A DNA stretch of 64,000 nucleotides from a virus, in the UHGV virus genome UHGV-1370141, one strand, 5' to 3'. A model generated the notes under the pieces. It searched no databases. It saw only the letters and a program-made list of their open reading frames with translations, and was not told the DNA's origin. Below, in pieces: positions 1 through 64,000 of the stretch. Made by a program: the position numbers and the translations under genes. The number at the start of each line of letters is the position of its first letter. The stretch's first letter is position 1.

Positions 1-417
1 TTGAAAACGATTTGGTTCGCAAGCCGTTTCAACCACAGCGTTCTGGTAAAAGAAACGTGATTTCTCATCGTCCTCTACCATCTTAAAGCCGTAGTTTTCA
101 AACTTACACCGATAAGGTGTTCCCTGCGTTAAGTAATGCTCGTAAAGCTTATACTCAATGCCAAATTCGGTGGCCGTACGATTAATAATAATGCGTAAAC
201 GCTCAGAAAAGTTCCTGTGGAAGATAAACGAGCGGAGAGAAGGTATATGCGCGTAATACGGATCGCCACGTTCAGTGAATATACGACCGTAATGCTTGCC
301 CATCTTAGGAGCGTGCATATGTTCTTCTGCCCACTTAAGTATCGCCGACTCTATCTGTCGGCACGGGACTTCAACCCTCACCCCCATGCTGGTAAAGGTC
401 ATGTGGAATTCGTACAT
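1..417 (-). CDS. hypothetical protein (partial; 3' end beyond left window edge)
   Basis: Minus-strand frame open from an ATG at about 417 to position 1 (hand translation MYEFHMTFTSMGVRVEV...); absent from ORF track because no stop in window; purine-rich SD-like GAGGGGA just upstream. Confidence 0.4.
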   Translation of the reverse strand, partial: MYEFHMTFTSMGVRVEVPCRQIESAILKWAEEHMHAPKMGKHYGRIFTERGDPYYAHIPSLRSFIFHRNFSERLRIIINRTATEFGIEYKLYEHYLTQGTPYRCKFENYGFKMVEDDEKSRFFYQNAVVETACEPNRFQ

Positions 418-420
418 GCT

Positions 421-456
421 CCCCTCTTACAAAAAAAGAGGGGCGCAGGCCCCTCT
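421..456 (-). terminator. intergenic GC-rich hairpin with T-run (minus orientation)
   Basis: Hairpin gaggggc-gca-gcccctc followed on minus strand by TTTTTTT, directly after the stop of the 460..2559 gene. Confidence 0.4.
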
Positions 457-459
457 CGT

Positions 460-4799: not shown

Positions 4800-4823
4800 T
4801 TTAATGCTCCTTTAGGTTGATTC

Positions 4824-4845
4824 GGTAGGATAATATCTATCTCAC
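4824..4845 (-). promoter_or_regulatory. recurrent promoter-like motif (coding strand GTGAGATAGATATTATCCTACC)
   Basis: About 30-40 nt upstream of the SD (AAAGGAG) of the beta-like gene; same motif recurs upstream of at least 7 other minus-strand genes. Coordinates approximate. Confidence 0.45.
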
Positions 4846-4862
4846 TTAATTTAGGAACAACT

Positions 4863-5186
4863 ATGCTTGAAGATTTTATTACCCTAAAAGAAATCATACC
4901 TGCGCCCTATACCAGCACCTGGAAAGTGCTGCACGATTACACAGATTTTCTGCGTAAACACCCACAAACTAAAGTAGAAACTGTAGACCCACGATTCAGT
5001 TATCCTGAGATTCACAATTTCTACGCTTATTGCAAACTGAAAGGTTATGCCGAAAACATCATCTACCCGATGATGCTACTCAATAACTTGGAAGACCCTA
5101 TGAACTTCACCCCTGAGATTACAGAGCTGATAGTTCCAGATGCCGGGGTCGTCGCCAGTATTCTTAGCACCATCGTAGACGATTAA
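4863..5186 (+). CDS. hypothetical protein
   Basis: 107-aa ORF on plus strand between divergent region and a bidirectional terminator; no recognisable motif. Confidence 0.4.
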   Translation: MLEDFITLKEIIPAPYTSTWKVLHDYTDFLRKHPQTKVETVDPRFSYPEIHNFYAYCKLKGYAENIIYPMMLLNNLEDPMNFTPEITELIVPDAGVVASILSTIVDD

Positions 5187-5215
5187 AAAAAGAAGGGACA
5201 CTGTCCCTTCTTTTT
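5185..5215. terminator. bidirectional rho-independent terminator
   Basis: Perfect hairpin gaagggacactgtcccttc flanked by A-run upstream and T-run downstream, between convergent genes. Confidence 0.65.
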
Positions 5216-5221
5216 ACTACC

Positions 5222-6601
5222 CTAGTACGAGCTCTTAAACGGACTCGTAGAAGCACTAGCAAATGGGTTGCTTGTACTACTACCAAATCCGCTAGACGAA
5301 CCAAACTGAGGCTGGCTGCCGAAAGAGCTGCCTCCGAATGATGAACCCCCGCCAAAAGAGTGCCCGCCACCAAACGTATTCGACAGCGAGTTCGGTTGAC
5401 CGAATCCACCTACGTCACCAAAACCGCTGTTCTTACGCTCGCCACCGAAAGCATCTACTACAGAAATCCGTCCTACCATTCCTGTACCAGCCAGGTTAGT
5501 TGTGTTGTGTTCTTCCACAAAACGCTGCATTGCTGGAGAAAGATTACCGAAGCTGTTCGTTGGAGTCATCCGTTGCTTACGCGCACGGAAGAACTCTACC
5601 GGATCGTCCAGGTTCGGCTTATCCGCATCAGACGCCTTCTTCGTCGGGATCTGTTCCGTTGCCGACGATCTGTCAATTCTGAACTCACGGGCACTGGTAT
5701 CACGCTCAGGATTGTCTGAACGTGGACCGGTGTTATACGGTAAGGTCTGGATGACATTATCGTAAATCTCCATGTTGTCCAGCTGTGAAATCCATTCATC
5801 GTCCAACGGGCGCAGTGGTGTGTGGTCACGTAGCCCTTTCACTACGTTATTGTAGTTTACCACGTACTGTGCCCAACCGCGTGCTAACGACCCGAAGTAC
5901 GGACGGGAATCGTTAGAACCGGTGACACTTGGATACCAACCGAACACAGTAGTCAGCAGGCGATGAATAATCACCTTATCCTGTTTACGTTGAAGCTTCA
6001 CCGAGAAGTACATTGCAGTACCGTCTAAGGATTCTTCTTCGAACATATGGCGATAATTAGCCACACGGTTAAACTTCACACCGTCGATAACTAAATCAGA
6101 TGCAATAAAGAGCTGGGTAACTTTGTGCTTTTTATCGCGCTCCAATAAGCCATAAACGTATTGTTTAACTGCTTCCCAGGATTTTACCAAACGATCGTCA
6201 AACGTCGGATCTTTCATCCCTTCACAAATCTGTTCCGTTAAGAACTTCTTGTACGCCGCAGAACGAATTGCTTTACCACTGGCAGCCGTTTCCAGAATAG
6301 CGTCAATCAACGCAAAGGAACGAATGAACAAATTCGCATTGATAGATTTCTTCAAGAAACGGATGGTGCCCGATTCACCGGCCAGCACAGATTCACAGAG
6401 AGGATGGAATGCCTGACATTCACGTCCATCGTCATCTTCCATTCCTTTCTTAATCATTGCCGACGTTGGAAGCGCCAGGCGGCGCTTCACTTTGTTGTAG
6501 GTAAATTCTGCTGGCTCACCGTCATCACGGGTAAGCAAATCGTTCTCGAAATCGAATCCTTGTGATTTAAGAAACGATTTATAGAATTCAATAATTTTCA
6601 T
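5222..6601 (-). CDS. hypothetical protein with C-terminal FG-repeat low-complexity tail
   Basis: 459-aa ORF; last ~90 aa contain ~9 FG dipeptides in S/G/N/Q-rich spacers (AFGG, GFGD, GGFGQ, TFGGG, SFGGG, SFGGS, SFGS, QFGSS, GFGSS). Confidence 0.65.
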   Translation of the reverse strand: MKIIEFYKSFLKSQGFDFENDLLTRDDGEPAEFTYNKVKRRLALPTSAMIKKGMEDDDGRECQAFHPLCESVLAGESGTIRFLKKSINANLFIRSFALIDAILETAASGKAIRSAAYKKFLTEQICEGMKDPTFDDRLVKSWEAVKQYVYGLLERDKKHKVTQLFIASDLVIDGVKFNRVANYRHMFEEESLDGTAMYFSVKLQRKQDKVIIHRLLTTVFGWYPSVTGSNDSRPYFGSLARGWAQYVVNYNNVVKGLRDHTPLRPLDDEWISQLDNMEIYDNVIQTLPYNTGPRSDNPERDTSAREFRIDRSSATEQIPTKKASDADKPNLDDPVEFFRARKQRMTPTNSFGNLSPAMQRFVEEHNTTNLAGTGMVGRISVVDAFGGERKNSGFGDVGGFGQPNSLSNTFGGGHSFGGGSSFGGSSFGSQPQFGSSSGFGSSTSNPFASASTSPFKSSY

Positions 6602-6622
6602 TTATTAATCCTTGATATTTTT

Positions 6623-8326
6623 TTACTCGCCGAAAGCGCCGAATACACCGCCTGCGGTGGAAATGTTGTCAGGAGCACCAAAGCTACCGAAAGAACCGAA
6701 GCTATTGGTAGGCGCAGCCGCTGCCGTAGGAATGTTGGACAGGATATTAGTCCGGTTTTGTCCACGGTTGAATTCCTGATAACCTTCTTCTACTTTGTTC
6801 ATCAGCTGTGCCGTTTCAACAGCCAACTGATTGGTGTAGTTAAGGTCAGTTGTCACCCCACTGTGGATACGCGCTTTCATGAACGATGCGAAAGTGTAAT
6901 ACTCAGGCATCTCACCATCGAGTTCAATCTCAATGCGCGTTACCACACCAACGATACAAGTTACTGTCATGCAGCAACGGATACGGTTGTGTTTGGTCAC
7001 TTGTAGCATCAAACCTTGGAGATCGCTCATGAAACGACGTGCTAATACATCCGGCAAACCTTCGTCTGTTAATGCACCGAGAGTGTGGTGAGCAACTTGC
7101 AGCATCGGTTGTGTGGAAATATCCGCCATGCGGTTATCGTAGAAGAAGGTAATCTCACCAATCAAGTTACGGGACACGATTGGGCCGAGTACCATCGCCA
7201 AATCAAACGCAACCAGAGAACCTTGGGTAGAATAGTTATTACGTCCTACCCAATCGTCGGTACGTTCAATCTCACCGAAACCACGGCGGTCAGCTACCGC
7301 TAGAGATTGCGAAATCGCAATATCCAAATCTTGCGGGTTCATGATTGCGTTACGCAAATCAGCTAACTTAAACGCTGCGCGGTTGACTGCGTTCCAACCA
7401 CCAGACACATCCGACGTCGCGTTCGTTAACGCGGCACGGAAAGCACGGATCAGTTCGTAGTTATTGAAATTGCGCATTACCCCGATTTGGTTCAGCTCAG
7501 ATTCCACGCCAAGAGAATGGTCACCTGCAAAGAAGCTGTCTACCGTGCTCAGCTCTGTTTCAATCCCCATCGTGTTGATGAAAGAATTCGCAATCGCTGT
7601 AACAAAAGACTCAGGACGAGTCAGTTGACCAGACATCAGCTGCGGCGCGGATTGACAGTTCGCAGAGATAACCGTTTGGTCATCGTAAGTGAACTTCTCA
7701 CCTGCGTTAATCAGATTACGAATCGTGGATGCTGCTTTTGCAGTAGAGATTGCATCGATGGTGTGTTCACTGTAGCTATCTACTGTCAGAGTTTTAGACA
7801 GCACGTAGTTATCAACCAGACGGAAAGAATCTGGGTTGATACGACGTCCCCCGAACGCATCGGTAATGTACGTACACTGCAAGCCGTAGATTTCATTGAT
7901 GTATAACACCATGTCATCTGGCAGGTGGTTAAATACGGAACGCTCTGCCTGGGAGGTATAACCCGAGACGACATAACGGGTTTCCTGCGTACGACTTTCG
8001 TTAATCACGTTACCTACGATAATCGCAACGAAGTTATACACGCCAGTGTCACGGGAATTATACTGGAATTGTACCGGACGAGATTCATCATCGCTTACGT
8101 TAATCAGCGGAGTTTCAACGCCGGTCGGAGTATTATCAAACCCTACAATCTGCCCTAACGCTTCTTGATAATCTCGAGTCTTGGTCGCATTCTCGCCGTG
8201 TTGCGCCACAACGTTTACGAGTTCATCTAAAGCGTACTTAGATTCAAAGAACCCAATACGACGACGAATCTGTTTAGGAATTTCGTACACTGGGTTGATT
8301 TGAAGCTTTAGAAGTTTCATTGCCAT
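6623..8326 (-). CDS. hypothetical protein with short C-terminal FG-repeat tail
   Basis: 567-aa ORF ending NSFGSFGSFGAPDNISTAGGVFGAFGE; SD AAAGGAG upstream of ATG. Confidence 0.65.
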   Translation of the reverse strand: MAMKLLKLQINPVYEIPKQIRRRIGFFESKYALDELVNVVAQHGENATKTRDYQEALGQIVGFDNTPTGVETPLINVSDDESRPVQFQYNSRDTGVYNFVAIIVGNVINESRTQETRYVVSGYTSQAERSVFNHLPDDMVLYINEIYGLQCTYITDAFGGRRINPDSFRLVDNYVLSKTLTVDSYSEHTIDAISTAKAASTIRNLINAGEKFTYDDQTVISANCQSAPQLMSGQLTRPESFVTAIANSFINTMGIETELSTVDSFFAGDHSLGVESELNQIGVMRNFNNYELIRAFRAALTNATSDVSGGWNAVNRAAFKLADLRNAIMNPQDLDIAISQSLAVADRRGFGEIERTDDWVGRNNYSTQGSLVAFDLAMVLGPIVSRNLIGEITFFYDNRMADISTQPMLQVAHHTLGALTDEGLPDVLARRFMSDLQGLMLQVTKHNRIRCCMTVTCIVGVVTRIEIELDGEMPEYYTFASFMKARIHSGVTTDLNYTNQLAVETAQLMNKVEEGYQEFNRGQNRTNILSNIPTAAAAPTNSFGSFGSFGAPDNISTAGGVFGAFGE

Positions 8327-8359
8327 TTTGTAAATACTCCTTTAGGTTATGCCGATAAA

Positions 8360-10021
8360 TTACTGATTAAACCACGCCACTTCTTCACATTTCTTCCTGT
8401 TCTGAATTAACAGGAATTCTGCTAACATGTTCTGAAGTCGTGGGTGTGGTGTGTAGCCTAACATCACTTCTCCACTCCGAAGCATTCTTGCTGCTTCAGG
8501 TGTTGCCCTGAGATTGAAGTTAAACGGCGCAATATGTTCACGTACCAACAACGTCAAAGACGTCTTCAATGTTGACTGTTCGTAGATATTGCGATTGGTA
8601 CGGTATGCCTGAGGATAAAATCTATCCGATTTTATTTTGATCTCATTATCAATAGGTTCGATTGGATAACCCCCATTGTTGGGATCTAAAACCATTTCAC
8701 AGCTTAGCAACTGTGCAATCTCATGCATTCCGTAGTAGATATAAATCGCTTGTGCGATCCCCATTGCATTCTTAAACGCAGCAGCGTCAATGTCCTTATA
8801 GGTTCTGCGGTCAGCAAAGCGATGCAGTGCGGCTGCAACCAACCACTCGTACAGTTCGTAGAACGGATATTGATGATTCAGGTGAATAGAATCAATCAGT
8901 ACCTTAGCATCCGCAGGAGCGATATCGATCCCTAAGGAACGAACCACACGACGATAATCGTTGAAAAACTCTTGGGTACGAACAAACTCTTTCATCGGCG
9001 CTTTAGAGCGCGCTTGAACCAAGTCTATCGCACAAGTTTTCCCTTTCTCACCGTTAAACATAATCTTTTCAGGATGCGCTTTTAAGATGACGTTCTGTGA
9101 CGAAATCTTTCCTGCAAATCCTGTTTCGATTTCCTGCTTGATATTAAAGTACATCCCTGCAACGATGTTGTTCTCCACCATCGTACCTGGAGGTAACTCT
9201 GCGCCGATGAGTTTCATGGCGATTAAGCGAATCACCGCGAATGCCATGATGTACTCTTCCACCATATCCGTACCGTAACCACAGATAGAGGCCAGCACCG
9301 TTAAGTTCGCACTGTTCGGTCCTTTATTGCCACCGTCCTGTACTTTCGAAATCACCGACACTAAGAAGTCCCGCAATTTACTGATTGCAGGTAGTTGTGC
9401 TATCTCGGTGTCGTAAAGCAATTCCATGCAATGGGTTAAGTTATAAACGCTTTTCCGCTTGGAGTCCACAGCGGCGCGTGTTGTTGGGAAAGCATCCATG
9501 ACCAAGAATACCGGAATGAACGGTTTTACCATCAACGACAGTATGACCAGTTCGTAGTAGTCTTGTACGATATACGTCATCTCTTTCGGATAGTTAGATG
9601 ACATTTCTTCGTAAGTTTCGTGGACGTTTTGAGGAATCCACACGGAGCTTTGTGGATAGAGTTGGCGGAATCTGTCCGCGTGGTGGAATTTGGCAATTTG
9701 TGCAACAATCTCTGGCGCATGTTTACGAATCGTTTCGGGTTCTTCATTACCCAGCATTTCTAACTCTTCGTACGCCGAGAATAATTCTTCCTTTTCCTCC
9801 GACGTTAACGTTGACCAATAACGTTCGATTTCCATGAACATAATTTTGTCATGGGTAACCACTTTGCCGGAGCTATCGCGTACGTCTGGCACATTCGCAT
9901 CTTTGCGTCCATTACGGAATCCGTTAAACCCTACTTCCTTATCACCGTAACTAATAATGAGACGGTCGCGATTTTTCTCAATACGCATTTTAAAATCTCC
10001 AGGGATAACATAGTCGACCAC
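8360..10021 (-). CDS. hypothetical protein
   Basis: 553-aa ORF; track start is GTG at 10021, a more plausible start is the ATG at about 9988 (M12) preceded by GGAG. Confidence 0.6.
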   Translation of the reverse strand: MVDYVIPGDFKMRIEKNRDRLIISYGDKEVGFNGFRNGRKDANVPDVRDSSGKVVTHDKIMFMEIERYWSTLTSEEKEELFSAYEELEMLGNEEPETIRKHAPEIVAQIAKFHHADRFRQLYPQSSVWIPQNVHETYEEMSSNYPKEMTYIVQDYYELVILSLMVKPFIPVFLVMDAFPTTRAAVDSKRKSVYNLTHCMELLYDTEIAQLPAISKLRDFLVSVISKVQDGGNKGPNSANLTVLASICGYGTDMVEEYIMAFAVIRLIAMKLIGAELPPGTMVENNIVAGMYFNIKQEIETGFAGKISSQNVILKAHPEKIMFNGEKGKTCAIDLVQARSKAPMKEFVRTQEFFNDYRRVVRSLGIDIAPADAKVLIDSIHLNHQYPFYELYEWLVAAALHRFADRRTYKDIDAAAFKNAMGIAQAIYIYYGMHEIAQLLSCEMVLDPNNGGYPIEPIDNEIKIKSDRFYPQAYRTNRNIYEQSTLKTSLTLLVREHIAPFNFNLRATPEAARMLRSGEVMLGYTPHPRLQNMLAEFLLIQNRKKCEEVAWFNQ

Positions 10022-13904: not shown

Positions 13905-14492
13905 TTAGCAGGACGCACCAAGTTCTGAACAGGGATCTTCATCTTCCCAGTCAAAACTTCGCATACGTGCCCAGTTAATCTGCATGTCAACTTGCTGAAC
14001 GCGAGTAAGTCGATTGGAGCGATCTTCGTTGGATACCCAGTTCCAGATACGATCCTCGTCGTACTCCGTTGACATACCTGACGTAACTTCACGATAGTTA
14101 TCGTCAGTGTGCATGTACGCCGAGCCTCGGAATCGGTCTACCTTAGAGTAACCGTTCTCAAAGCCCGTCGCCATGTTATTGTTGTAGAGCTGTCGGTATT
14201 CCGGCATTGCAATTAAGAACGGTTGTAACGCCTCATTCGCAAACTGGAATTGCCCGATAGTTTCAAGTTGTCTTACTACATTCGTTGCATCGCTATTTTG
14301 AACCTTACGCGCAGCTGCGTACATTTCGCGGAAACGTTGCAATGAGATCAGTTCATTACACTTCTGCTTCACGCGCTCAACCATATCCGGTGCGAAACTA
14401 GACAGGTTAAAGTTCTCTTTGAAATAACGATACATACCGCTATTTTCGTCTTGACGCTGCCAAATAGACCCGCCTAGATTCCACATGCCCAT
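13905..14492 (-). CDS. hypothetical protein
   Basis: 195-aa ORF. Confidence 0.5.
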   Translation of the reverse strand: MGMWNLGGSIWQRQDENSGMYRYFKENFNLSSFAPDMVERVKQKCNELISLQRFREMYAAARKVQNSDATNVVRQLETIGQFQFANEALQPFLIAMPEYRQLYNNNMATGFENGYSKVDRFRGSAYMHTDDNYREVTSGMSTEYDEDRIWNWVSNEDRSNRLTRVQQVDMQINWARMRSFDWEDEDPCSELGASC

Positions 14493-14738: not shown

Positions 14739-15088
14739 CTGTTTGTCCACTCCATTCCTTTTGGAGCAGGTGTGCAATGACACCCTCCCATGTTTTCACA
14801 TGGGCACAGACTATATCATAACCGTAGGTATTGCTACCCGTAGGTCTCCCCCACTTCGCCGCTAAACTAAGCAGCTACTCTACTCGGTTTTACCCTTTCG
14901 ATAGTCGTTGAACGATTTTCATCGCTGCTGGTTATCCATTATCACAACCCTTAGCATTATTGGTTAGCATAGGCTATCTTACGAATTGTTTCTGACTTTC
15001 GCCACCCTGTCGGGATCGTAAGCTTTAGGAGTTTCCAGCAATTCGAGGGATACGCACTAGAGGTTTCCCGTCTAGTGGGCCAAATTTT
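14739..15088 (-). ncRNA. group I self-splicing intron (ORF-less, about 350 nt) interrupting the RNAP beta'-like gene
   Basis: Separates ...KAPNA from DFDGDQ...; 5' exon ends in U, intron ends in G; contains P-like ACGGGAAAC, Q-like AUCCCGACAG, R-like GUUCAACGACUA and S-like GAUAUAGUCU elements with complementary GACUA/UAGUC (P7). Confidence 0.8.
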
Positions 15089-16456
15089 AGCATTCGGAGC
15101 TTTGATGACGCGATCGGAGATACGTAACGAACACTGTGTAACATCAGGGTTAACAGCTGAGATAAATAATGTCTGAATAGACAACTGTACAAGCGTCGGG
15201 TTTCGTAGCGCTGATATCATCAGGCCGTAACCGCCACGAGACTCCTTAATAAGTTCGTTGATAATTTCATGAACCAACGGTACGTACTGCATTGATGCAA
15301 ATGCAATAACACGTTCACACTGCCGTGGTGTGAAGTTCCGTCGACCGAGTTTGTTTTCAATAGCTACAGATTCTAACGTCACTAGCCAACGCCAAGGTGC
15401 AATAACCTTCATAGCGTCATGCGGTTCTGAGATTGGAGAGATTGTTACACGACCACCCCACGGGATGTGTGTTGAACCTAACTTGGCACGATAGAATCCA
15501 GGTTTACCTTCCATCACCTCCTGACGATGGTCAATATAGAAGTACGCTAACTGGCGATTTGCTTTTAATGCGCGACTAATAATGAAATGGGTTGGGATGC
15601 GTCGTGCATTAGTATAAAGTAACGCGATGTTCTTAACCGCGTCTATTGCACCGGTATAAACAGGATCGATAAAGATACCCTGACGTCGTTCCTCCGTAAC
15701 GATCAGTTTGGGTGAAATGATTGGAAGATGAACCGGAAAGAAAGTGTGTGATTGTTCTTCGAAGAACTTTTTCCACTCTAAGCGAGTACGTTCGCTCTCA
15801 TATCGGTTATTTTTCGTTGGTGGATAAATTTCTTTCCAGACTTCAGGAGAAGTTAAGATATTGAATATTGTTCGATGGTGGTCAATAAAATTCCTAATGC
15901 CGCGTGGAACTTGATACTCGCTAAAGATACGTTTGATTATTCGGGATCGAGTACCTTCGTCTTTATCAGGTTTATAGCACGGATCTAACATCCACATCAA
16001 TAAATCAGAACCACGTTCTACGGTCACTTTGTTTCGGTTAAACTTCTTAAGTTTAGAACCGAAGAAAGCGTTAAACATCGACCAGAATCGTGGGTTAATA
16101 AAGTTGCCTATTTCCTCCGGGGCACGAATCCAGACTTCTGAAACAATACGATGTTCTGTCACTACATAGCCGCAGGTAGGACATCGCATACCGAGATTAT
16201 ATCGATGAACGATAGGTGCTTCACAATCAATACTACAAATGGGTGCCGAATTTAGCGTCTCGTCGACTGTCCGGTTCTGTAAGATTCGGTTAATCAACTC
16301 TGACGTCTCAATGGTGTCTTTATATTTCGCAACATCATTGATAATCATCGGCGGTTTATAGCCCTTTTCCTCCGCCTCTTTGAAAGCGTCACGTAACATT
16401 TTATCGTGACTGATTAATCGCCCTGATACACCGAAGTATTGTAATCTGTCTTTCAC
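15089..16456 (-). CDS. RNA polymerase beta' N-terminal-like subunit, exon 1
   Basis: GFYRAKLGSTHIPWGGRVTISPI resembles [32 protein letters not shown] resembles NRAPTLHRLGIQ; Cys cluster CPTCGY near the N-terminus; exon ends ...RVIKAPNA immediately before the catalytic motif. Confidence 0.75.
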
Positions 16457-29894: not shown

Positions 29895-30042
29895 TAACGT
29901 AAGTCCGAACTTAATCGGTAGGTGTTTACACGTTTTTAAGGAGCTTTCTACCCGTGAGCAAGAGCAGAAGTTATCAGAACAACCGACGCTCAGTTGAAGG
30001 CTGACGAGTTTGTAACTCTTGTTCGATTGCTCTAATCTGGGC

Positions 30043-30115
30043 GACCAATGGCAGGATTCGAACCTGCGAAATAACCGATTATTAGTCGGGTGTTAATTCC
30101 TCTAACTTCAATGGT
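30043..30115 (-). tRNA. tRNA-like element (about 73 nt; anticodon uncertain, possibly pseudo-tRNA)
   Basis: Perfect T-arm GCAGG-TTCGAAT-CCTGC, 7-bp acceptor stem with one mismatch, anticodon-like stem-loop CCGA-CTAATAA-TCGG; D-arm weak and no encoded CCA. Hand-folded only. Confidence 0.4.
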
Positions 30116-30124
30116 CTAAATCCA

Positions 30125-50338: not shown

Positions 50339-51142
50339 TTACCACTTCCCGTTCCCTAAGCCCATAACACGCAGGTTGGTGCGTTTGTTGGCAATTGCCA
50401 GATACTCCTGAGCTAAAGCACGGACTTCACCACGACGGGATTCCGTTGCGATAGTTGAAGTGGTGTTTGGATTACGCAGGATGTCTTCCAGCGCCTGAAG
50501 CGACACACGGCGGTCCAGCAGGACACGGGTAGATTCCTGAGCCACTTTGCTACCACGCTGAATCGCGGAGTATTTGTTGCAAATCTGAAGCCCATCTTCG
50601 ATAACCCAGTCGAAGGTGACCAGACGATCCAGACGACGCGTTTTCACCCCACCAACATACCCTTCACGTACGATAGCACGCAGAGAGAAGCAAACGTTTT
50701 GATGTGGATTCTCTAACGCTTCTGCCAGATACGGACCACGTTCACGGTTCGGTTTAATCCAGCCCCAGATTTCCATTACCGGCAAACCATTACAGGTCTG
50801 GTCGGTCGGAATAACTTCAACTTCACGAATGTGCATACAGACGTTTTTCGTCTCAATCCATTCGTTACGGTCAATCCACTGCGCTTCGGTCATTCCCGGT
50901 TCTGGTGCAGGGTGGTCTTCTTCCCCGAACAGGTTACCGGCTTTTACTTTACGCATGAAAATGTTAGAGCGTTCGAATACGTGCTTAGACTCGTTATAGG
51001 CGTAGAAAATCCCTTCCGAGTTAAAAATATTCAGAGCACCCAATAATACGCGGTAATAACCATCCGCGTCTTTCTCCAGAGTAGCTGGAGCATTAACACC
51101 GGCTAACGCTACGCAATTGTAACGTAGGGTCAAGTTGTCCAT
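50339..51142 (-). CDS. hypothetical protein
   Basis: 267-aa ORF, directly abutting the downstream gene. Confidence 0.5.
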   Translation of the reverse strand: MDNLTLRYNCVALAGVNAPATLEKDADGYYRVLLGALNIFNSEGIFYAYNESKHVFERSNIFMRKVKAGNLFGEEDHPAPEPGMTEAQWIDRNEWIETKNVCMHIREVEVIPTDQTCNGLPVMEIWGWIKPNRERGPYLAEALENPHQNVCFSLRAIVREGYVGGVKTRRLDRLVTFDWVIEDGLQICNKYSAIQRGSKVAQESTRVLLDRRVSLQALEDILRNPNTTSTIATESRRGEVRALAQEYLAIANKRTNLRVMGLGNGKW

Positions 51143-57887: not shown

Positions 57888-59513
57888 TTAGCCTTTTGGA
57901 TTCTTTAATAACGCTTGCGTCGCACGTTTAATCACGTTGTTGACAGGATTGATTTTGAAATTCCCGTCTGAATCGAACCAGTAGTTCTTCGAGTGTATCC
58001 AGTTACGGTTTTCCTCGAGTGCTTCTTGCGACATAGGCGCGTTAAGTGAACCGGTGTCACCATCGTAGTCACCCCCTAAGCCACCCAATCGTGACGGGTG
58101 CGGTGCCATCGACTCGACAAAGGTTGGAACCGACCTGTCAGGATAACTGATAGCTCCGTGTGGCTTTTCAGTCTCCCAGTCATCTTCCAGTTCTTTTAGG
58201 TATAAAGATGACGTGGTGGTCTCCAATCTTATGGTCGATGAGTACGTCGAGCCTCGACCGGTGACGGGATAACGTGTAACGAAACCGAAATAATTGTTCC
58301 ACAGTTCGTAACCCGATAAATAGAGTAATTCTACCAGGGTCATTCCGTGGACGTTTTTACGGTCAAACGTTTTAGGCAGTTCGTCGATATCGTAGAACAC
58401 CTTAAAATGTTTGTTGTCTTGGTAGACCAGTGCGACATAATGGGTATCGTTAATCATTAACGGTTGATGACGAAGCTCGCGAGCTTCCATCCGGTTAATT
58501 AATGTTTCGATGCCATCGTCCGTGGTAAAGGTGTCGTAAACACGACCCCCAACCTCCAAGAACTCACGTTTAAGCGTTTTGGTGTTCACGCCATAAAGGT
58601 TGCCATCGCCAGCACGAATGTTACCGAGGTAACGTTCACGTATCTGGTATTGCGCAACAGGTAGCAACGCTTTCAGACCCTGATACAAACCAATTTTGGT
58701 GTCGGTCGGTCGAATCGCATCCTCACGTCCCATGCATTTAGAGCCTGTGGAGAATGAGGACAACACGTTACGTGTCCCGTTCATCAGTTTACGCGACGTC
58801 ACTTTACGACGTTGGAAACCTCCTTTACCGTCCTGGATGTTAAAGAAGTACATCCAGATTTCGTTAAAGGTTTGTTGGAGTTTCCATCGTACAGGGTTCG
58901 TTAATTCAACCCGTGTAGCACGGTCAGGAATCGCCCTGGCCAAAGAAATCAAACGACGATATAACCCACCGATTTCCTCTTCCTGTTCCCTACCGTCTTG
59001 TCTAACCACCAAATCACGTAAACCCGCGGGTAATACGAGAACATAGCGGCTAAGACTCACGGGACGGAACTTCTCGAAGAAATCCACCGTTTCGTCACGT
59101 TGTAACGATTCGTTACGTCCGGGTTTTAAGTCGTTGTAGTGACTAAGGAAAAAGTTAAAACCGGTATCTGCGCCAGCGTCGCCAGGCAAAGCCGGTTCAA
59201 AATCTTTTTCTTTTTCGCTCCAGGTTGCGTAGCGTTTTCCAGAACAAATTTCTTCGTAGAGTTGTTTTAGTTGGAATAACGCCAAACACACCGTCGGCGA
59301 AATGATATCTAATTTAATATCAATGTAAGAAAACGTTGAGTCTCGGGCTTCACTTCCCGTAAGACCGAATATCTCCGTGGAGTACAACCCTTCAGGGTGA
59401 AAGTTTTTTGTCAACCCTTGAAAAGTATCTGTGGTCGTGACGGGTCGTAATCGCGACACAAGAGACTTGTTTACATTGAGCAGATAAAAGTCAACCCAAT
59501 TAAGTTTATTCAC
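57888..59513 (-). CDS. RNA polymerase beta' N-terminal-like subunit (second RNAP set)
   Basis: [10 protein letters not shown] resembles [33 protein letters not shown] resembles [45 protein letters not shown] resembles [23 protein letters not shown]; GTG start with AGGAG SD. Confidence 0.7.
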   Translation of the reverse strand: [541 protein letters not shown]

Positions 59514-59542
59514 GCTAAATCTCCTGATACGGATTAAACGTT

Positions 59543-62500
59543 ATGGCTAAAAAAGGTAAAGACGATTTCGATGAAATCGATCTTGATAACATGGACGACT
59601 GGGACGATTTTGATGAGCCCCCTCGTCAACAAGACCAATCGCGTAACCCGGTCATGGACACATTTCGTGCTGCCCGTAAGTCGGCATTGTCGACTATCTG
59701 GCCCGAAAATAAACGTGATCAGGTCATTTTAAAAGGAATGCCAAAACCGGCGTCTGACGCTTATGAAGGTTATAAGAACGTCAAAGCCGCAGGTCAAGAC
59801 ATTCTGGCCCATACGAAAGACGAGATTGAAAAGACCTCCCGCGTGGTGAAGGCACAAGCTCGTCAATTAGGCCCAACCCTAAAACGGTATTTGCCTGACA
59901 GCGTAACCCGTAAGATCGATAAATGGGCGAAAAGCGACCAGTACGATTACGGGAATTACGATCCTAAACAAGCATTAATGGATCGTGAGTTAGACACTGT
60001 TTTTGCAGGTACCCCACAAACACCTGAACAACAACGTGAAGTTCAGGAAGGAATGGTAGAAGACCGTCTTCGTGACACCATCAAGGACATGAAGTCTGAT
60101 GCGCTGTTCCAGACGGTTATCGGTATTGCGAAAGACGTTAACCTGACGACCAGTTTAAGTCGTGGGGTGATGCTTAACGTTCAGCGTAAACAGTTAGAAC
60201 TGCAATACCGTACGTTATTCGCGTTGCAAGATATTGCTAAACTTAAACAGGATGAGTTTAGCCGTAACACCCCGGCACTTGAAGCGATTGTTAAAAACAC
60301 CGCGTTGCCGGACTACGCAAAAGAGGAATTCTCTGAAGTTCGTTGGGCTAACGTAAAACGTAAAGCTGCCGAATGGATGAACCCCTTGCGTTACGCGGAT
60401 AACTTTATTGATCAGATTCGTGAGAACGCGAAGAAAAAGATTTCGAATATCTTCAGCGACGGACGCGGGATATTAGAACAAGTTCTGTCAATGGGTCAGG
60501 AAGACGACTTTGGCATGGATGACAGTTCTACACTGTCGCCAGAACGTCGTCGTACGAATAGCCGAGGTAAAGTCGCAGGGTTTGCCGGTGGTTGGTTAGC
60601 AAAACGATTCTTACAACCGCAAGTAGAACGTTTACAGAACTGGACACGCAGTGAGTTAGAAAAGAACCCTGAAGTCATGAAACGGCTTCAGTTGGCACGC
60701 TACGGGTTCGGTAACTTATCTTCTATCTCTAACTCGGCGATTGCTGGTGAGATAGACGGCCCACTGGCCACCGTCTTCCGTTTAATGCACGAGTTGGGGT
60801 TAGTGACACCGCTGCGTCGTGAGGGATTAGCTTTAGAAGAACGTTCAGCAGAAGCGTTATCCGCTGCCGCGAAGTTCGACCGTAAAGCGTATCTTAGCAT
60901 CACGGAAGTCATCCCGACTTTGCTGACGGAGATTAACAAATCTATTCGTCGCGGGTACGGCGAACACCACGACCAGGTGTACGATTTAACCACGCGTGGG
61001 ATGATTGACCGTAAAGTCATCGGTAACCGTGTCCGTAAAGCGGTTGCGAACGATGAACAGCGGAAGCGTTTACAGCAGTACATTAACGAAACCGTTGACT
61101 TTATCGACAAAGACAAAACCCTGGATTCGAAAACTCGCCAGGCGCTGGCGGACTATATCGAATCCCGTGCGTCTGAAGGTAAGGCATTCGACGTAGGCAG
61201 TCTGCTGAAAGACCCGATGCACATGTATCGTTACATGAATGCAAACGCGGTAGAAGCGATTCAGGCGGTCTTAGAAGCACGGTCTTCAGAACTGACAGGC
61301 GGTCATCACGAACTTAGCAATGAGATTGCTAGTAAGATTTCAGCCATTCAGTCAACGATACGTGCACGTCAAAACACGGTAGACGAAGCTTCAATTATCT
61401 ACGGTGAGAATGCGTTACGTGACGCAGGTATCTTTAAGTACGATGCGAAGAACGATCGGTTTGATGTAGATAAAGACATTAACGATCCGTATACGCTATA
61501 CAACGACCTGGCCATGGGGAAAACCCGTTCCGGTCGTTCGTTAACGCGTGAACAAGAAATCCAGCGCAAACTGAAAAACGGTTCTGCGCTAGGTGACTAC
61601 TTACGTCGTTTAGGGGTAGACGCTTCCGTAACCGGTGACGAGTCGACTATTGACACCGTTAAAGGTAAAGGTGGACGTGGTGGTCGTGGGCTGTCGGCAC
61701 GACAACTTGCTGCTGTCCTCTACGGTGAAAAATCCACCAACTTTGTTGAACTGTTAAGCGAACGGCCTGACACTAATGCGGGTTTAGAGCAACAGTTTGA
61801 TAGAATCGTTGATGCTATCCGTAACAAATCCGAATCCAACACCGTGCAGGAAATTCTGAAACATGTTAAGAACATGGATGAGGAAGGCATCCTGCTGGCC
61901 AGCTTAGGTGGTGGTCGTGACGGTGAGGGTGACGCATCTGAAGACGCGGGTAGTACCGGTAACAAACGCAAACGTAAGCGCATTGTGCTTGGTGAAAGTG
62001 GGCTGTTCCGTCGTTGGGCGGGCGTACTTTGGGACACCGGTACGGGTGCTGGTCGTTTTGCGAAGAACATGTTCCTGAGAGGAAAAGGGCGTTTACAGTC
62101 ACTGGGCAGTTTTATCCGTGGGAAGTTCTCCGGTGGGTCTTCTGACGGTCCAGGTGTTTTTGAACGACTGAAAGGTTTAGTTACTGGTACGCTGTCCACA
62201 GGCTGGAATTCAGCAGTAGCGTTCGGGAAAGGCGTTCTTGGTGTTCGAGACATCTACGACGAGAAAGGCAATGTTGTTTTACAAGGTAGCCGTTTAGAGG
62301 CAGGTGAGTATTATCAGGCTGACCCTAAAACCAACAAGTTGGTACAACTCCGCTCGTTAGACGACATTAAGCTGGGTCGTGATATTGTTGACGAAGCCGG
62401 GAACTTGATTCTCGCAGCGGCGGACTTAGCGGCTGCGGGTAAACTGCGCTTCTATAAAGGTGGTAAGCTCCAGGCCCTGTTCCAGTATATCTCTGGTAAA

Positions 62501-64000
62501 GCAGGTACAGCGGTAAACAAAGCTGTTAACTTACCGAAGAAACTGATTGGTCTAATCTCACCAAGAGCAGCGTCTATCTTCGAGAAAGCACGTGAGTGGC
62601 TTAACGAGATTCCCGAGGGTAGTGAGAAAACGCGTTTACAAAGCATGATTTCTCGCGTAACCGGAATGCCTGCTCGTTTGTGGAACAATGCAAAACGCGG
62701 CTTTGAGAAATTCAAAGAGTTAGCGACTGACAACCCACTTACCCGGTGGTGGCAGAATCGTAAGGACGGTGGTTCTGGCGGCGGTTTCAGCATGTTCTCC
62801 TGGTCGAATGGCCGTAAGACCAACCATATCCTGATTCGTATCTATAAACTCCTTAACCGTCGTTTAGACGGTGAGCCTGAAGATGAATCCTGGACGGAGC
62901 AACTGGAGAAAAACGTTGGCTCGAAATCTATCAAAGGGATGCTTAACCGTGTTAAGGATTTCCGCGATGGGTTTAAAGACTATTTCCAGAATTTCCGGGA
63001 TTGGCGAGGCAGACAACGTGACCGGTTCTCGCGTTTCCGTCATGGTGTTGGCGATAGACTGTCACGTTGGGGTGCTGCGGGTAAAGGGTGGTTTGACCGT
63101 TTCCGTGGACGCTTTGGCGAAACGGTAGATAGCTTCCGCGATCCACGCTACGACATTGCCACACGTTATCGGACGGAGTCTCGTTTAGCAGGTCGTGACG
63201 ATGACGTTGCTGAGTTTTACCGTCAACACTTATACGCCCGTGGTAAGGTTTCTCCAACACGCGTGATTAACGCAGCGAAGGAGGATTTCGAAACCGCAAC
63301 GGATAGCGCAGGACGCGTTATCAACAAAGGTAAGCAGAAAGCGAAGAGTGTTGGTTCAGCATTACTGGAACGTTTAAACCGGATGGTTAACCTCCAGGAA
63401 ATGTCCTGGTTTAACACCATGCGTGACTCTGCGGAACGTGCTGGTGCGCCAGATGGCTTGATTCGTACGATGTTCAGTAAATTCGGACAACGTAACAAAC
63501 CGGCAGCCAATGATGAAAAACGCGACTACTTCCAATTCTTCCGTCGTCGTAGACGTTCTAAGGAAGAAGAGAAAGCCAAGAAATCCGCCGAACAGAAAGG
63601 ACGTAAAGGCGGGGTGATGGACTTCCTCAAAGGGCTACCGTTAGTAGGACCAATCGTGAGTATCTTAGGTACGGTGGGTTCCATACTGGGTAAAGTTGCG
63701 AAGTGGGGTATTTTTAAACCTACCGGGTTCCTTGGTAAAGCAGTGTGGAACGTTGGTAAGTTTGCCGTCCAGCGTTTAGCGGTTCCGGCGGTGACTGCGG
63801 TAGCCTCGGCTGCGTCTACGGTGGTAGCAGCGGTGGGATGGCCCGCAATTGTGATCGGTGCGACTGCCGCCGGTCTGGGTTATTGGGCGTATAAATGCGC
63901 TACCCGTGTGAAAGCACAGTACCTCGACTATATGCGTCTGGCACAATACGGTTTCCGTGACTACGACCAGTGGTCTTCTGAAGACGGTATGAAAGCCCGT
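59543..64000 (+). CDS. giant protein (over 1486 aa, partial; candidate virion internal / tape-measure-like or ejection protein)
   Basis: Frame open from an ATG at about 59543 to the window end (no complete plus ORF in the track across 4.4 kb); Gly/Arg-rich repeats (GKGGRGGRGL), KRKRKR, and a hydrophobic Gly/Ala-rich C-terminal region (PIVSILGTVGSILG..., AVASAASTVVAAVGWPAIVIGATAAGLGYW). Confidence 0.55.
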   Translation, partial: MAKKGKDDFDEIDLDNMDDWDDFDEPPRQQDQSRNPVMDTFRAARKSALSTIWPENKRDQVILKGMPKPASDAYEGYKNVKAAGQDILAHTKDEIEKTSRVVKAQARQLGPTLKRYLPDSVTRKIDKWAKSDQYDYGNYDPKQALMDRELDTVFAGTPQTPEQQREVQEGMVEDRLRDTIKDMKSDALFQTVIGIAKDVNLTTSLSRGVMLNVQRKQLELQYRTLFALQDIAKLKQDEFSRNTPALEAIVKNTALPDYAKEEFSEVRWANVKRKAAEWMNPLRYADNFIDQIRENAKKKISNIFSDGRGILEQVLSMGQEDDFGMDDSSTLSPERRRTNSRGKVAGFAGGWLAKRFLQPQVERLQNWTRSELEKNPEVMKRLQLARYGFGNLSSISNSAIAGEIDGPLATVFRLMHELGLVTPLRREGLALEERSAEALSAAAKFDRKAYLSITEVIPTLLTEINKSIRRGYGEHHDQVYDLTTRGMIDRKVIGNRVRKAVANDEQRKRLQQYINETVDFIDKDKTLDSKTRQALADYIESRASEGKAFDVGSLLKDPMHMYRYMNANAVEAIQAVLEARSSELTGGHHELSNEIASKISAIQSTIRARQNTVDEASIIYGENALRDAGIFKYDAKNDRFDVDKDINDPYTLYNDLAMGKTRSGRSLTREQEIQRKLKNGSALGDYLRRLGVDASVTGDESTIDTVKGKGGRGGRGLSARQLAAVLYGEKSTNFVELLSERPDTNAGLEQQFDRIVDAIRNKSESNTVQEILKHVKNMDEEGILLASLGGGRDGEGDASEDAGSTGNKRKRKRIVLGESGLFRRWAGVLWDTGTGAGRFAKNMFLRGKGRLQSLGSFIRGKFSGGSSDGPGVFERLKGLVTGTLSTGWNSAVAFGKGVLGVRDIYDEKGNVVLQGSRLEAGEYYQADPKTNKLVQLRSLDDIKLGRDIVDEAGNLILAAADLAAAGKLRFYKGGKLQALFQYISGKAGTAVNKAVNLPKKLIGLISPRAASIFEKAREWLNEIPEGSEKTRLQSMISRVTGMPARLWNNAKRGFEKFKELATDNPLTRWWQNRKDGGSGGGFSMFSWSNGRKTNHILIRIYKLLNRRLDGEPEDESWTEQLEKNVGSKSIKGMLNRVKDFRDGFKDYFQNFRDWRGRQRDRFSRFRHGVGDRLSRWGAAGKGWFDRFRGRFGETVDSFRDPRYDIATRYRTESRLAGRDDDVAEFYRQHLYARGKVSPTRVINAAKEDFETATDSAGRVINKGKQKAKSVGSALLERLNRMVNLQEMSWFNTMRDSAERAGAPDGLIRTMFSKFGQRNKPAANDEKRDYFQFFRRRRRSKEEEKAKKSAEQKGRKGGVMDFLKGLPLVGPIVSILGTVGSILGKVAKWGIFKPTGFLGKAVWNVGKFAVQRLAVPAVTAVASAASTVVAAVGWPAIVIGATAAGLGYWAYKCATRVKAQYLDYMRLAQYGFRDYDQWSSEDGMKAR

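Follow-up and report, generated by a model that had tools for sequence, protein, structure and literature searches.

Which protein does a giant open reading frame encode when it runs off the end of the DNA, and is it a tape-measure or ejection protein, as an earlier note made from the sequence proposed? The window, i.e., the whole 64,000-nucleotide stretch of the virus genome UHGV-1370141 that was analyzed, contains such a frame on the plus strand. As the note had stated, it is open to the window edge: frame +1 has no stop from the ATG at 59543 to position 64000 (1486 codons), whereas the other five frames contain 41–154 stops each across the same interval, and the probability of so long a stop-free run, computed from base composition, is about 2e-35. 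An in-frame TGA is located upstream at 59525–59527; 59543 is therefore the earliest possible start, and homologues align with the protein from residue 1. The gene is indeed not completely in view, and the downstream sequence that the note called for was supplied by a public contig (L005), whose 16.1-kb overlap with the window shows 100% identity and which carries the entire gene of 7134 nt, ending at window-equivalent position 66676. The encoded protein comprises 2377 aa, and the window ends at residue 1486. Six independent contigs of ~220 kb carry the gene for all 2377 aa. A frameshift or internal stop would have spoken against the reading frame; it stays open in all five natural variants, and codon differences within the window part are predominantly synonymous (127–136 vs. 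13–29 nonsynonymous). The giant reading frame is a genuine, constrained gene.

The family to which the product belongs is readily apparent. A tblastn search with it retrieved matches in 173 phage records, every one of them from a jumbo phiKZ-like phage, and BLASTP aligned it with phiKZ gp181 over aa 1450–2210 (E=5e-37) and aa 12–550 (E=4e-16). It is the syntenic orthologue of phiKZ gp181 and SPN3US gp239. Since the reading frame is real and represents the first 62% of a 2377-residue phiKZ-like internal tail protein, the gene is not a new kind but a further member of a known family that is carried by all phiKZ-like giant phages. We consider it likely that the phage is a phiKZ-like (Seoulvirus-related) jumbo myophage and that the gene encodes an internal tail protein, a putative tape measure fused to a virion-associated peptidoglycan lysin. 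The tape-measure reading of the earlier note agrees with the view in the field, where the orthologue SPN3US gp239 is named tail tape measure protein and its ruler role is putative.

The genetic environment leads to the same family. The gene for a virion RNA polymerase (vRNAP) subunit lies upstream on the opposite strand, and its product matches phiKZ gp180 (BLASTP, E=1e-75) and contains a GDYDGD motif, so that the label beta'-N-like, given to it before, is fair. The neighbor is divergent as claimed, but the distance is 29 and not 30 nt. This spacer is not long enough for two full promoters; a sigma-70 scan, which does not cover promoters of the phiKZ type, found nothing in it. The gene downstream of the giant gene matches phiKZ gp182 (E=8e-38), the baseplate spacer ring in the phiKZ atlas. 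The order of vRNAP genes, divergent giant gene and gp182-type gene is conserved and was seen in phiKZ, SPN3US, SPAsTU, ChrisDB, CR5, a Vibrio phage, RSF1, Moabite, PCH45, and Goslar; synteny of the neighbors was found in eight annotated relatives from other genera. The vRNAP gene serves as a context marker of this synteny and is separate from the tail protein.

Features of the giant gene and its upstream neighbor (window coordinates; pLDDT values and helix or strand assignments from AF2 models; KD19, Kyte-Doolittle hydrophobicity in 19-residue windows)
Feature	Position	Strand	Basis
Virion RNA polymerase subunit, homologue of phiKZ gp180/SPN3US gp240	57888..59513	-	PHROG 2986, E=3e-235
Divergent intergenic spacer, 29 nt, giant gene/gp180 homologue	59514..59542		coordinates
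Gene for gp181/gp239-family internal tail protein, 5' 62% (aa 1–1486)	59543..64000	+	open frame; L005; PHROG 3201, E=0
Acidic N-terminal tail, aa 1–35, DDFDEIDLDNMDDWDDFDE, modelled disordered	59543..59647	+	pLDDT 32–42
Long-helix region, aa 36–420	59648..60802	+	AF2 helices H36–417
Folded, mostly helical domain, aa 436–690	60848..61612	+	block-mean pLDDT mostly 75–92, 60s in places
Disordered Gly-/charge-rich linker, aa 691–899, low confidence	61613..62239	+	pLDDT mostly <50
GKGGRGGRG patch, aa 708–716	61664–61690	+	in linker aa 691–899
KRKRKR patch, preceded by acidic run, aa 808–813	61964–61981	+	in linker aa 691–899
Small beta-hairpin module, aa 900–980	62240..62482	+	pLDDT ~85, strands E911–978
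Single long Arg/Phe/Trp-rich helix, aa 1130–1195	62930..63127	+	AF2 H1130–1195
RRRRR patch, aa 1334–1338, in basic stretch just 5' of hydrophobic block	63542..63556	+	sequence
Hydrophobic segment 1, Gly-rich, aa 1357–1386	63611..63700	+	KD19 maximum 1.8
Hydrophobic segment 2, Ala/Val/Gly-rich, aa 1411–1446	63773..63880	+	KD19 maximum 1.89
RLAQYG landmark, aa 1465–1470	63935..63952	+	R, A, Q, Y nearly invariant, G invariant

The protein had been described as largely low-complexity, helical-looking and endowed with Gly/Arg-rich repeats, and this description needs correction. Just 139 of the 1486 residues fall into 30-aa windows with an entropy below 3.0 bits, one such window (aa 1139–1168) lying within the Arg/Phe/Trp-rich helix. 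Both reported patches are present, each occurring once, and self-BLAST revealed no internal repeat. Helix indeed prevails in the AF2 model (58% in aa 1–1200, 70% in aa 1–690), but the linker is disordered and a beta module follows it. In the acidic N-terminal tail, D10 and D15 are nearly invariant. The long-helix region, the part best conserved with respect to phiKZ gp181, contains the invariant motif N252-T-A-L-P256 and may be the extended stretch that lines the tube lumen. When the whole model of aa 1–1200, including the folded domain that follows, was compared with the PDB using Foldseek, nothing was retrieved at E<1. The exact strings GKGGRGGRG and KRKRKR are absent even from orthologues with 62–64% identity, and only the composition of the linker is kept, within the SPN3US/Erwinia-phage clade. 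Most likely, both are compositional features, providing flexibility and charge contacts with tube lumen or DNA, rather than specific motifs. The beta-hairpin module is formed around two RDI(Y/V)DE.GN motifs (at aa 903 and 947); extra copies occur in some relatives. The Arg/Phe/Trp-rich helix is a variable region with an 18-aa insertion compared to SPN3US gp239, and around the RRRRR patch the motif EKRDYFQFFRR is kept in the near clade.

Gly/Ala-rich hydrophobic segments, also mentioned in the earlier note, exist as two strong stretches within aa 1357–1446; they are not C-terminal, as had been thought, but are located at about 60% of the length of the complete protein. This block contains the top three windows of the protein in hydrophobicity. 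Segment 2 contains the most hydrophobic one and is long enough for a helical hairpin, and segment 1 harbors the window with the second lowest insertion energy. Of 61 relatives, 56 possess a comparable block (KD19≥1.5), and in 57 it provides the top hydrophobic window of the whole protein. By analogy with other tail proteins, the block may insert into a membrane, but several observations point the other way: AF2 did not predict a helical hairpin in it (pLDDT 28–44), a simple sum of insertion energies comes out positive (+3 to +6 kcal/mol), and GxxxG spacings are no more frequent than the composition would give.

The RLAQYG landmark (RMMQYG in phiKZ) marks the start of a conserved folded middle domain (aa 1450–1870, pLDDT 85–95 in AF2, fold without assignment), most of which lies past the window edge. 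Next in order, likewise outside the window, are a lytic transglycosylase domain of the SLT type and helices at the C-terminus. The Pfam SLT profile scored 32.7 bits (cut-off 21.3), and phmmer matched gp144 (E=1e-14) in an alignment that includes the catalytic ES motif, which together predict a lytic transglycosylase domain at aa ~1935–2190 with Glu2015 as the catalytic residue. This defining domain is situated outside the window and was thus invisible to the author of the earlier note.

Where in the virion does such a protein reside? The papers on SPN3US designate gp239 as the tail tape measure protein, and virion proteomics of the kind the earlier note had suggested is available for this orthologue: 521/595/594 PSMs (~570) were found in virions vs. 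0/4/4 (~3) in tailless heads, and a second mutant that forms tailless particles lacked gp239 in them as well. In phiKZ, orf181 does not tolerate transposon insertions, and the absence of gp181 from the phiKZ atlas matches the behavior of the lumenal tape measures of T5 and lambda, which are ill-resolved. The SPN3US data contradict the head-packaged form of the "ejection protein" that the note had offered as an alternative, namely an inner-body protein that would reach the cell along with the DNA, as the vRNAP subunits do. Although the giant gene adjoins the head-packaged vRNAP genes, the same proteomics assigns gp240 and gp241 to the head and gp239 to the tail, and the giant gene points away from the vRNAP genes, in the direction in which the tail genes gp238 and gp237 are transcribed; we regard packaging in the head as extremely improbable. 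The assumption of a tail fiber, i.e., a receptor-binding protein, stems from the label of PHROG 3201 ("tail fiber protein") and from many GenBank entries, in fact from most database records. These labels are legacy transfers and very probably wrong, other records and papers naming a lytic transglycosylase, tail lysozyme or tape measure. The fibers in the phiKZ atlas are hetero-hexamers of the gp131 family; the 40 proteins modelled there take in both fiber and peripheral baseplate components, but gp181 is missing. Pfam gave no matches in aa 1–1900, no fiber-type domain or beta-helix was detected, and AF2 yielded helical or disordered structure; a fiber is hardly credible. No known spike protein reaches more than about a quarter of the 2377 aa of the giant protein, and neither a beta-helix nor an OB-fold is predicted, which argues against a needle-like cell-puncturing device at the baseplate center analogous to T4 gp5. 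Such a device was proposed for phiKZ gp181 in 2008 and taken up again in reviews, one of which lists it in a table, and a lysin domain is present as in T4 gp5, but in the phiKZ atlas the spike is gp164, the tip gp163.1 and the hub gp101, while Goslar uses gp13 and gp48. This idea is largely refuted by these assignments and appears very unlikely.

A serious question concerns the ruler itself. The tail tube consists of 43 rings of 37.7 Å in phiKZ and 46 rings of 39.2 Å in Goslar, while the residues preceding the hydrophobic block number 1296 and 1254 out of totals of 2237 and 2252 aa, respectively; in these two phages, protein length is therefore not strictly proportional to the tube. This would fit a lumenal or hub-associated carrier of lysin and membrane-active module with the ruler residing elsewhere, as would the N-terminal half with its folded and disordered parts instead of an uninterrupted coiled coil and the lack of any sequence match of the giant protein to the curated tape-measure families of Pfam and NCBIfam. 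On the other hand, a pre-hydrophobic length of ~1250–1360 aa corresponds to 1.25–1.44 Å of tube per residue (phiKZ, Goslar), close to the canonical 1.5 Å; the comparison comprises two data points with different helical rises and is compatible with a ruler using part of the chain. Moreover, these phages are not known to encode a second candidate for the ruler, and this is the sole giant tail-located helical protein encoded beside a hub/spacer gene. We thus consider a carrier without ruler function rather unlikely, and tail-length determination by the gp181/gp239 family putative.

For an internal tail protein with a putative tape-measure role, a course of events can be proposed by analogy with T4, lambda, and T5. 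During assembly, the C-terminal helices would bind within the hub and spacer of the baseplate (proteins of the gp101 and gp182 types), and the tube would polymerize around the extended, largely helical, net-basic N-terminal ~1350 residues, which would fill the lumen up to the terminator. Once the sheath has contracted and the spike is lost, the protein would leave the tube ahead of the DNA. The transglycosylase domain, with experimental support in phiKZ, would then cut peptidoglycan locally, and the marginally hydrophobic block with basic patches at its flanks might enter the inner membrane, where it could anchor or line a conduit for the DNA and the co-ejected virion RNA polymerase. Two observations run counter to a simple version of this scheme: tube or hub would also have to accommodate some 1000 further residues, two globular domains among them, and just 58% of aa 1–1200 is modelled as helix, with folded and disordered parts.

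The closest characterized relative is SPN3US gp239 (Seoulvirus, 259 kDa), for which the tail location was measured by mass spectrometry. Proteins of this class share with the giant protein 62–64% aa identity along its entire in-window portion (in the nearest isolates, SPAsTU and SEGD1 class), the length (2372–2377 aa), the neighbors on both sides, the hydrophobic block, the SLT domain, and the C-terminus. Some 36–38% of the residues differ, however, and SPN3US has RGGGKGRG and GGGKRRR in place of GKGGRGGRG and KRKRKR. The phage itself belongs to a distinct lineage of ~220–227 kb without a DNA-level match in the isolate-phage collection. phiKZ gp181, a structural peptidoglycan hydrolase and putative tape measure that is essential and unresolved in the virion atlas, is homologous in aa 12–550 and 1450–2210 and likewise has the synteny with gp178/gp180 and gp182 and an SLT domain of the gp144 type, but identity is merely 21–24%, its hydrophobic block is far weaker (KD19 maximum 1.22), and it lacks Gly/basic or polybasic patches at matching positions.

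T5 pb2 is alike in module order, with a long helical/coiled-coil part, ~46 hydrophobic residues (two putative TM helices), a muralytic domain and a short hub-bound C-terminal helix, and expulsion, membrane insertion as a channel, and release of a peptidoglycan hydrolase have been proposed for it. It has no detectable sequence homology to the giant protein, is about half its size, belongs to a non-contractile tail, is cleaved between hydrophobic stretch and enzyme, and carries a Zn-peptidase instead of a predicted transglycosylase; the giant protein has an extra folded domain of ~420 aa between block and lysin. Lambda gpH/gpH* resembles the giant protein in occupying the tube lumen and in ejection before the DNA (both proposed here), in a Gly-rich region and in marginal hydrophobic segments, and gpH* forms a trans-envelope channel. 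However, gpH has 853 aa, no lysin domain and no sequence similarity, and its ruler function was shown genetically, whereas that of the gp181/gp239 family is putative. The likeness to phiKZ gp144 and SLT-family lytic transglycosylases (PF01464) is limited to the ~200-aa domain outside the window, gp144 being a 260-aa endolysin and neck wedge and not a giant tail protein. Among relatives of the giant protein, the type of lysin is exchanged, with SLT, GH19, lysozyme, and VanY domains all occurring.

The open reading frame at 59543-64000 (+) runs through 1486 codons without a stop, as the earlier note had claimed. The remaining five frames over this interval contain 41-154 stops, and the probability of a 1486-codon open frame, calculated from base composition, is ~2e-35. 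Since an in-frame TGA lies upstream at 59525-59527, the ATG at 59543 is the earliest possible start, and alignments of homologues to the giant ORF begin at residue 1. The complete gene was recovered via contigs encoding the exact neighboring protein, six in number and ~220 kb each. One of these, L005 (ENA ERZ1304834 NODE_11, 225,879 bp), matches the window at 100% identity throughout the 16.1 kb shared by both; here, the giant gene (2838-9971, minus strand) encodes 2377 aa and continues for 2676 nt past the window edge, equivalent to an end coordinate of 66676. The five other contigs are natural variants with 96-97% DNA identity and the frame is open in all of them, such that neither a frameshift nor a stop is present in six independent assemblies. 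Codon differences of the variants in the window part are synonymous in 127-136 vs. nonsynonymous in 13-29 cases. The intact frame and the synonymous excess together indicate, from comparison of the sequences, that the giant gene is under purifying selection. The ORF is a genuine gene, complete elsewhere, and comes from a well-populated family.

Judged by sequence similarity, the encoded protein is a member of the known phiKZ gp181/SPN3US gp239 family. The fragment present in the window matches PHROG 3201 with E = 0 and 1341 bits, and a tblastn search retrieved 173 phage records, all from phiKZ-like jumbo phages. The nearest isolated-phage orthologues were found in Seoulvirus (e.g., SPAsTU and SEGD1), with 62-64% identity across the full fragment. 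Pairwise BLASTP against phiKZ gp181 yielded E = 5e-37 for aa 1450-2210 and E = 4e-16 for aa 12-550. A large protein search returned 117 clusters at E ≤ 1e-5, nearly all with lengths of 2100-2600 aa, and the 2377-aa protein has the size (~2100-2600 aa) and the C-terminal peptidoglycan-hydrolase domain of the family. Near-identical copies in public assemblies are labelled “transglycosylase SLT domain-containing protein”. Searches of PDB sequences for relatives of this protein and of phiKZ gp181 matched gp144-type SLT chains only, so no orthologue of the gp181 family has a solved structure; the neighboring RNA polymerase (RNAP) subunit had no PDB relative by sequence search.

The genetic environment marks the window as part of a phiKZ-like jumbo phage. 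The divergent neighbor at 57888-59513 (-) is a homologue of the phiKZ virion RNAP subunit gp180 (E = 1e-75) and contains a GDYDGD motif, and its earlier description as beta'-N-like is therefore reasonable. The divergent orientation was also correctly recognized; the spacing, given as 30 nt, measures 29 nt. These 29 nt (59514-59542) separate the start codons of a gene for a head-packaged RNAP subunit and a tail gene, so any promoters of the pair have to reside within coding sequence or at a greater distance upstream. A scan of the spacer for sigma-70 promoters, the wrong model for these phages, returned nothing, and an equally tight divergent junction is present in relatives. Downstream, the giant gene is followed by a homologue of phiKZ gp182 (E = 8e-38). 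Window and L005 together thus exhibit the locus of the gp181/gp239 family, i.e., divergence from gp180/gp178 homologues followed by a gp182-type baseplate spacer gene. Virion RNAP genes, a divergent giant gene (2123-2474 aa) and a ~700-aa gene occur in this order in 10 phages (phiKZ, SPN3US, SPAsTU, ChrisDB, CR5, a Vibrio phage, RSF1, Moabite, PCH45, and Goslar); the giant protein has 2461 aa in ChrisDB, 2474 aa in CR5, and 2123 aa in RSF1. The giant gene is located directly upstream of spacer/hub-side genes (gp182 and gp183/DUF7941 homologues), and its upstream side is occupied by the virion RNAP operon, not by tube or frameshifted chaperone genes, which together with hub genes would flank a tape measure gene in a tail module. 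Just past the window, after the gp182-type gene, L005 encodes a DUF7941 protein homologous to SPN3US gp237 (11-574, minus strand), and a homologue of the Peptidase_S80 prohead protease of the SPN3US gp245 type is encoded within the window at 50339-51142 (-).

Features of the complete 2377-residue protein and AlphaFold2 confidence where available
Feature	Residues (aa)	pLDDT
Acidic disordered tail	1-35	
Long helices, best conserved with phiKZ; invariant NTALP motif	36-420	
Confidently folded helical domain	436-690	
Disordered Gly/charged linker	691-899	mostly <50
Small beta module on two RDI(Y/V)DE.GN motifs	900-980	
66-residue Arg/Phe-rich helix	1130-1195	
Basic stretch with RRRRR	~1330-1356	
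Hydrophobic block	1357-1446	
Well-folded domain	1450-1870	85-95
RLAQYG landmark	1465-1470	
Linker	~1870-1930	
Ala/Pro/Ser-rich low-complexity stretch	~2200-2255	
C-terminal helices	2256-2292 and 2314-2338	

The structural assignments stem from two AlphaFold2 models calculated from 62-sequence alignments, one covering aa 1-1200 (mean pLDDT 60), the other covering aa 1201-2377 (mean pLDDT 72) and built on a 98%-identical representative. At moderate confidence, aa 1-690 are predicted to be 70% helical, individual helices reaching 42 residues, and would thus provide the long, predominantly helical region looked for in tape measure proteins; in the model, the helical part is broken up by disordered and beta segments. 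The in-window part had no match in Pfam and, in NCBIfam, nothing beyond sub-threshold noise (14 bits for BB0259 lytic transglycosylase; 14.5 bits for geobacillin-26 on the hydrophobic segment), and Foldseek found no match with E < 1 in the PDB for the whole aa 1-1200 model. The window part, with a net charge of +49, contains the two charged patches that had been noticed before, GKGGRGGRG (aa 708-716) and KRKRKR (aa 808-813), as well as two hydrophobic segments rich in Gly/Ala (aa 1357-1386 and 1411-1446). Other elements of the earlier description have to be revised: just 139 of the 1486 residues fall into low-entropy windows, which does not agree with a largely low-complexity product; each charged patch occurs once and self-BLAST finds no internal match, so that the term “repeats” has to be rejected; and the hydrophobic segments are not C-terminal, but reside at ~60% of the full protein. 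Both charged patches are situated in the predicted disordered linker, and it is solely their composition that is conserved, within the SPN3US/Erwinia-phage clade only. The ~420-residue domain between the hydrophobic block and the SLT domain begins at window position ~63890, mostly lies past the edge, and is conserved down to phiKZ; it has neither a Pfam match nor a convincing solved structural analogue.

The SLT domain (PF01464) was read from L005 beyond the window, at aa 1997-2082. It scores 32.7 bits against a Pfam cut-off of 21.3 and has the catalytic glutamate in an E-S motif. For phiKZ gp181, a review lists a muralytic activity of 60,000 U/mg (citing Briers et al. 2008). Across the family, the C-terminal lysin module is swapped on an otherwise constant scaffold (proteins compared: P0042-P0045, P0108, P0116, P0117, P0092, P0102, P0111, P0114, and the one encoded at L017:1718-8476). 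The majority of family members carry SLT, and some have GH19 chitinase-like, phage lysozyme (PF00959) or VanY (PF02557) modules, or an added Peptidase_S74; the lysin of Goslar gp204 is of the GH19 type, by a weak match. For enzybiotic mining, it is useful that the lysin (SLT, GH19, lysozyme, VanY) can be exchanged while the scaffold stays constant.

The hydrophobic block is the most informative feature inside the window. By a simple insertion-energy sum, the protein's top three windows for hydrophobicity fall in it, ~3 SD from the mean. As is typical of the family, the Gly/Ala-rich block is followed by the R-x-x-Q-Y-G landmark; a comparable block just upstream of this landmark is present in 56 of 61 aligned relatives, and in 57 of the 61 no other window of the protein is more hydrophobic; its median position is 63% of the length. 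Goslar gp204 also has the block, and it is weak in phiKZ itself. The hydrophobicity is marginal, with a positive energy sum, which fits a segment that has to remain soluble during assembly and to insert later. AlphaFold gives no confident structure for the block, and glycine-zipper spacing (GxxxG, small-xxx-small) was rejected as evidence for a channel, as it was not enriched over composition-matched shuffles in any of 11 members (p ≥ 0.2). A membrane role is therefore proposed by analogy, not from a direct predictor.

Information about the location of the protein comes from SPN3US, where gp239 (259 kDa) has been called the tail tape measure protein and is absent from tailless particles; the supplementary table lists 521/595/594 spectra in virions vs. 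0/4/4 in tailless heads. In the same phage, gp238 and gp237 are classed as tail proteins and the divergently encoded RNAP subunits gp240/241 as head proteins. The proteomic data contradict an ejection protein residing in the head; an ejection protein had been considered along with a tape measure in the earlier note. The tail location is thus known by mass spectrometry for the SPN3US orthologue and is predicted for the protein of the window phage. Within the tail, a review has placed gp181 in a “needle-like cell-puncturing device”; this assignment is superseded by the 2026 structural atlas of phiKZ, which puts the spike at gp164/gp163.1 and identifies gp101 as hub, gp182 as spacer ring and gp88 as tube initiator. 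The protein gp181 is not among the 40 modelled in the atlas, no such protein is modelled in the Goslar structure and the PDB is without a gp181 chain. A tail protein that is not seen by cryo-EM would resemble the lumenal tape measures of T5 and lambda. The widespread legacy label “tail fiber” protein is very probably wrong, as it lacks domain or structural evidence and is contradicted by the fiber assignments in phiKZ; it should read internal tail or tape-measure-lysin protein.

Whether the internal tail protein also acts as a ruler was assessed from the length of its pre-hydrophobic part, ~1250-1360 aa. For the only two relatives with ring counts, phiKZ (43 rings of 37.73 Å, 1296 aa) and Goslar (46 rings of 39.16 Å, 1254 aa), the tube measures 1.25 and 1.44 Å per residue, respectively, near the canonical 1.5 Å but not proportional: the Goslar tube is longer, the pre-hydrophobic part of its protein is not. 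This mismatch would fit a lumenal carrier of lysin and membrane segment that does not determine tube length, an alternative that we consider unlikely. Neither Pfam-A nor NCBIfam gave a match to a curated tape measure family (E ≤ 0.1), which is no argument against the function because tape measure proteins are notoriously diverse in sequence. A ruler function remains plausible and the protein is a putative tape measure.

For T5 pb2, structural work has led to the proposal that the protein is expelled from the tube, that its hydrophobic segment inserts to form a channel, and that the enzyme is set free in the periplasm; pb2 is cleaved between the hydrophobic stretch and the enzyme. Lambda gpH* has been visualized as a trans-envelope channel. 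The order of modules in pb2, a long helical part, a hydrophobic stretch of two transmembrane lengths, a muralytic domain and a short C-terminal helix, is shared by the protein studied here, in which 30 + 36 hydrophobic residues within aa 1357-1446 precede the SLT region (aa ~1935-2190); the likeness is architectural, with no homology detected. By analogy, the putative tape measure would be assembled inside the tube with its C-terminus anchored in hub/spacer and would be expelled after sheath contraction and loss of the spike. Its SLT domain would then cut peptidoglycan, a lysin activity that is experimentally supported in phiKZ, and the hydrophobic block may anchor or line the passage through the inner membrane.

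Reviews name the mechanism of EPI vesicle formation as an open question, and cryo-electron tomograms show the vesicle with the inner tube of phiKZ attached. It is conceivable, though unlikely, that the hydrophobic block, as a virion element, links the tube with the inner membrane and nucleates the EPI vesicle; no paper among those found connects gp181 with EPI vesicle formation. If true, the “tape measure” would be the virion factor so far missing, by which ejection of DNA leads to an invagination of the membrane and not simply to translocation. A family-wide block at ~60% of the chain offers a mutable target for questions of inner-membrane DNA passage and EPI vesicles.

The phage of the window represents a phiKZ-like lineage of ~220-227 kb. 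Megablast of the ORF against isolate phages gave a 42-bp match only, and there is thus no close DNA relative among them. Near-complete contigs of the lineage are present in very many bacterial isolate assemblies, labelled as Salmonella enterica (many serovars), E. coli, Shigella flexneri, and Enterobacter. The cluster of the tail protein comprises 635 members, and individual RNAP-subunit sequences occur on 256, 236, and 86 contigs. This abundance suggests a carrier state or pseudolysogeny, or else a phage that recurs in surveillance sequencing as a co-culture or contaminant.

Elsewhere in the window, a group I catalytic intron (Rfam RF00028, 63.7 bits, E = 8e-14) was detected at 14787-15099 (-). 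As it overlaps the 3' end of the ORF at 14957-16456 (-) and lies upstream of that at 13905-14492 (-), it suggests that the two ORFs are parts of an intron-split gene; neither of them has a Pfam match. In Goslar, the RNAP region likewise harbors a group I intron. A single tRNA gene, for tRNA-Ile with the anticodon AAT, is located at 30040-30116 (-) in a region poor in long ORFs.
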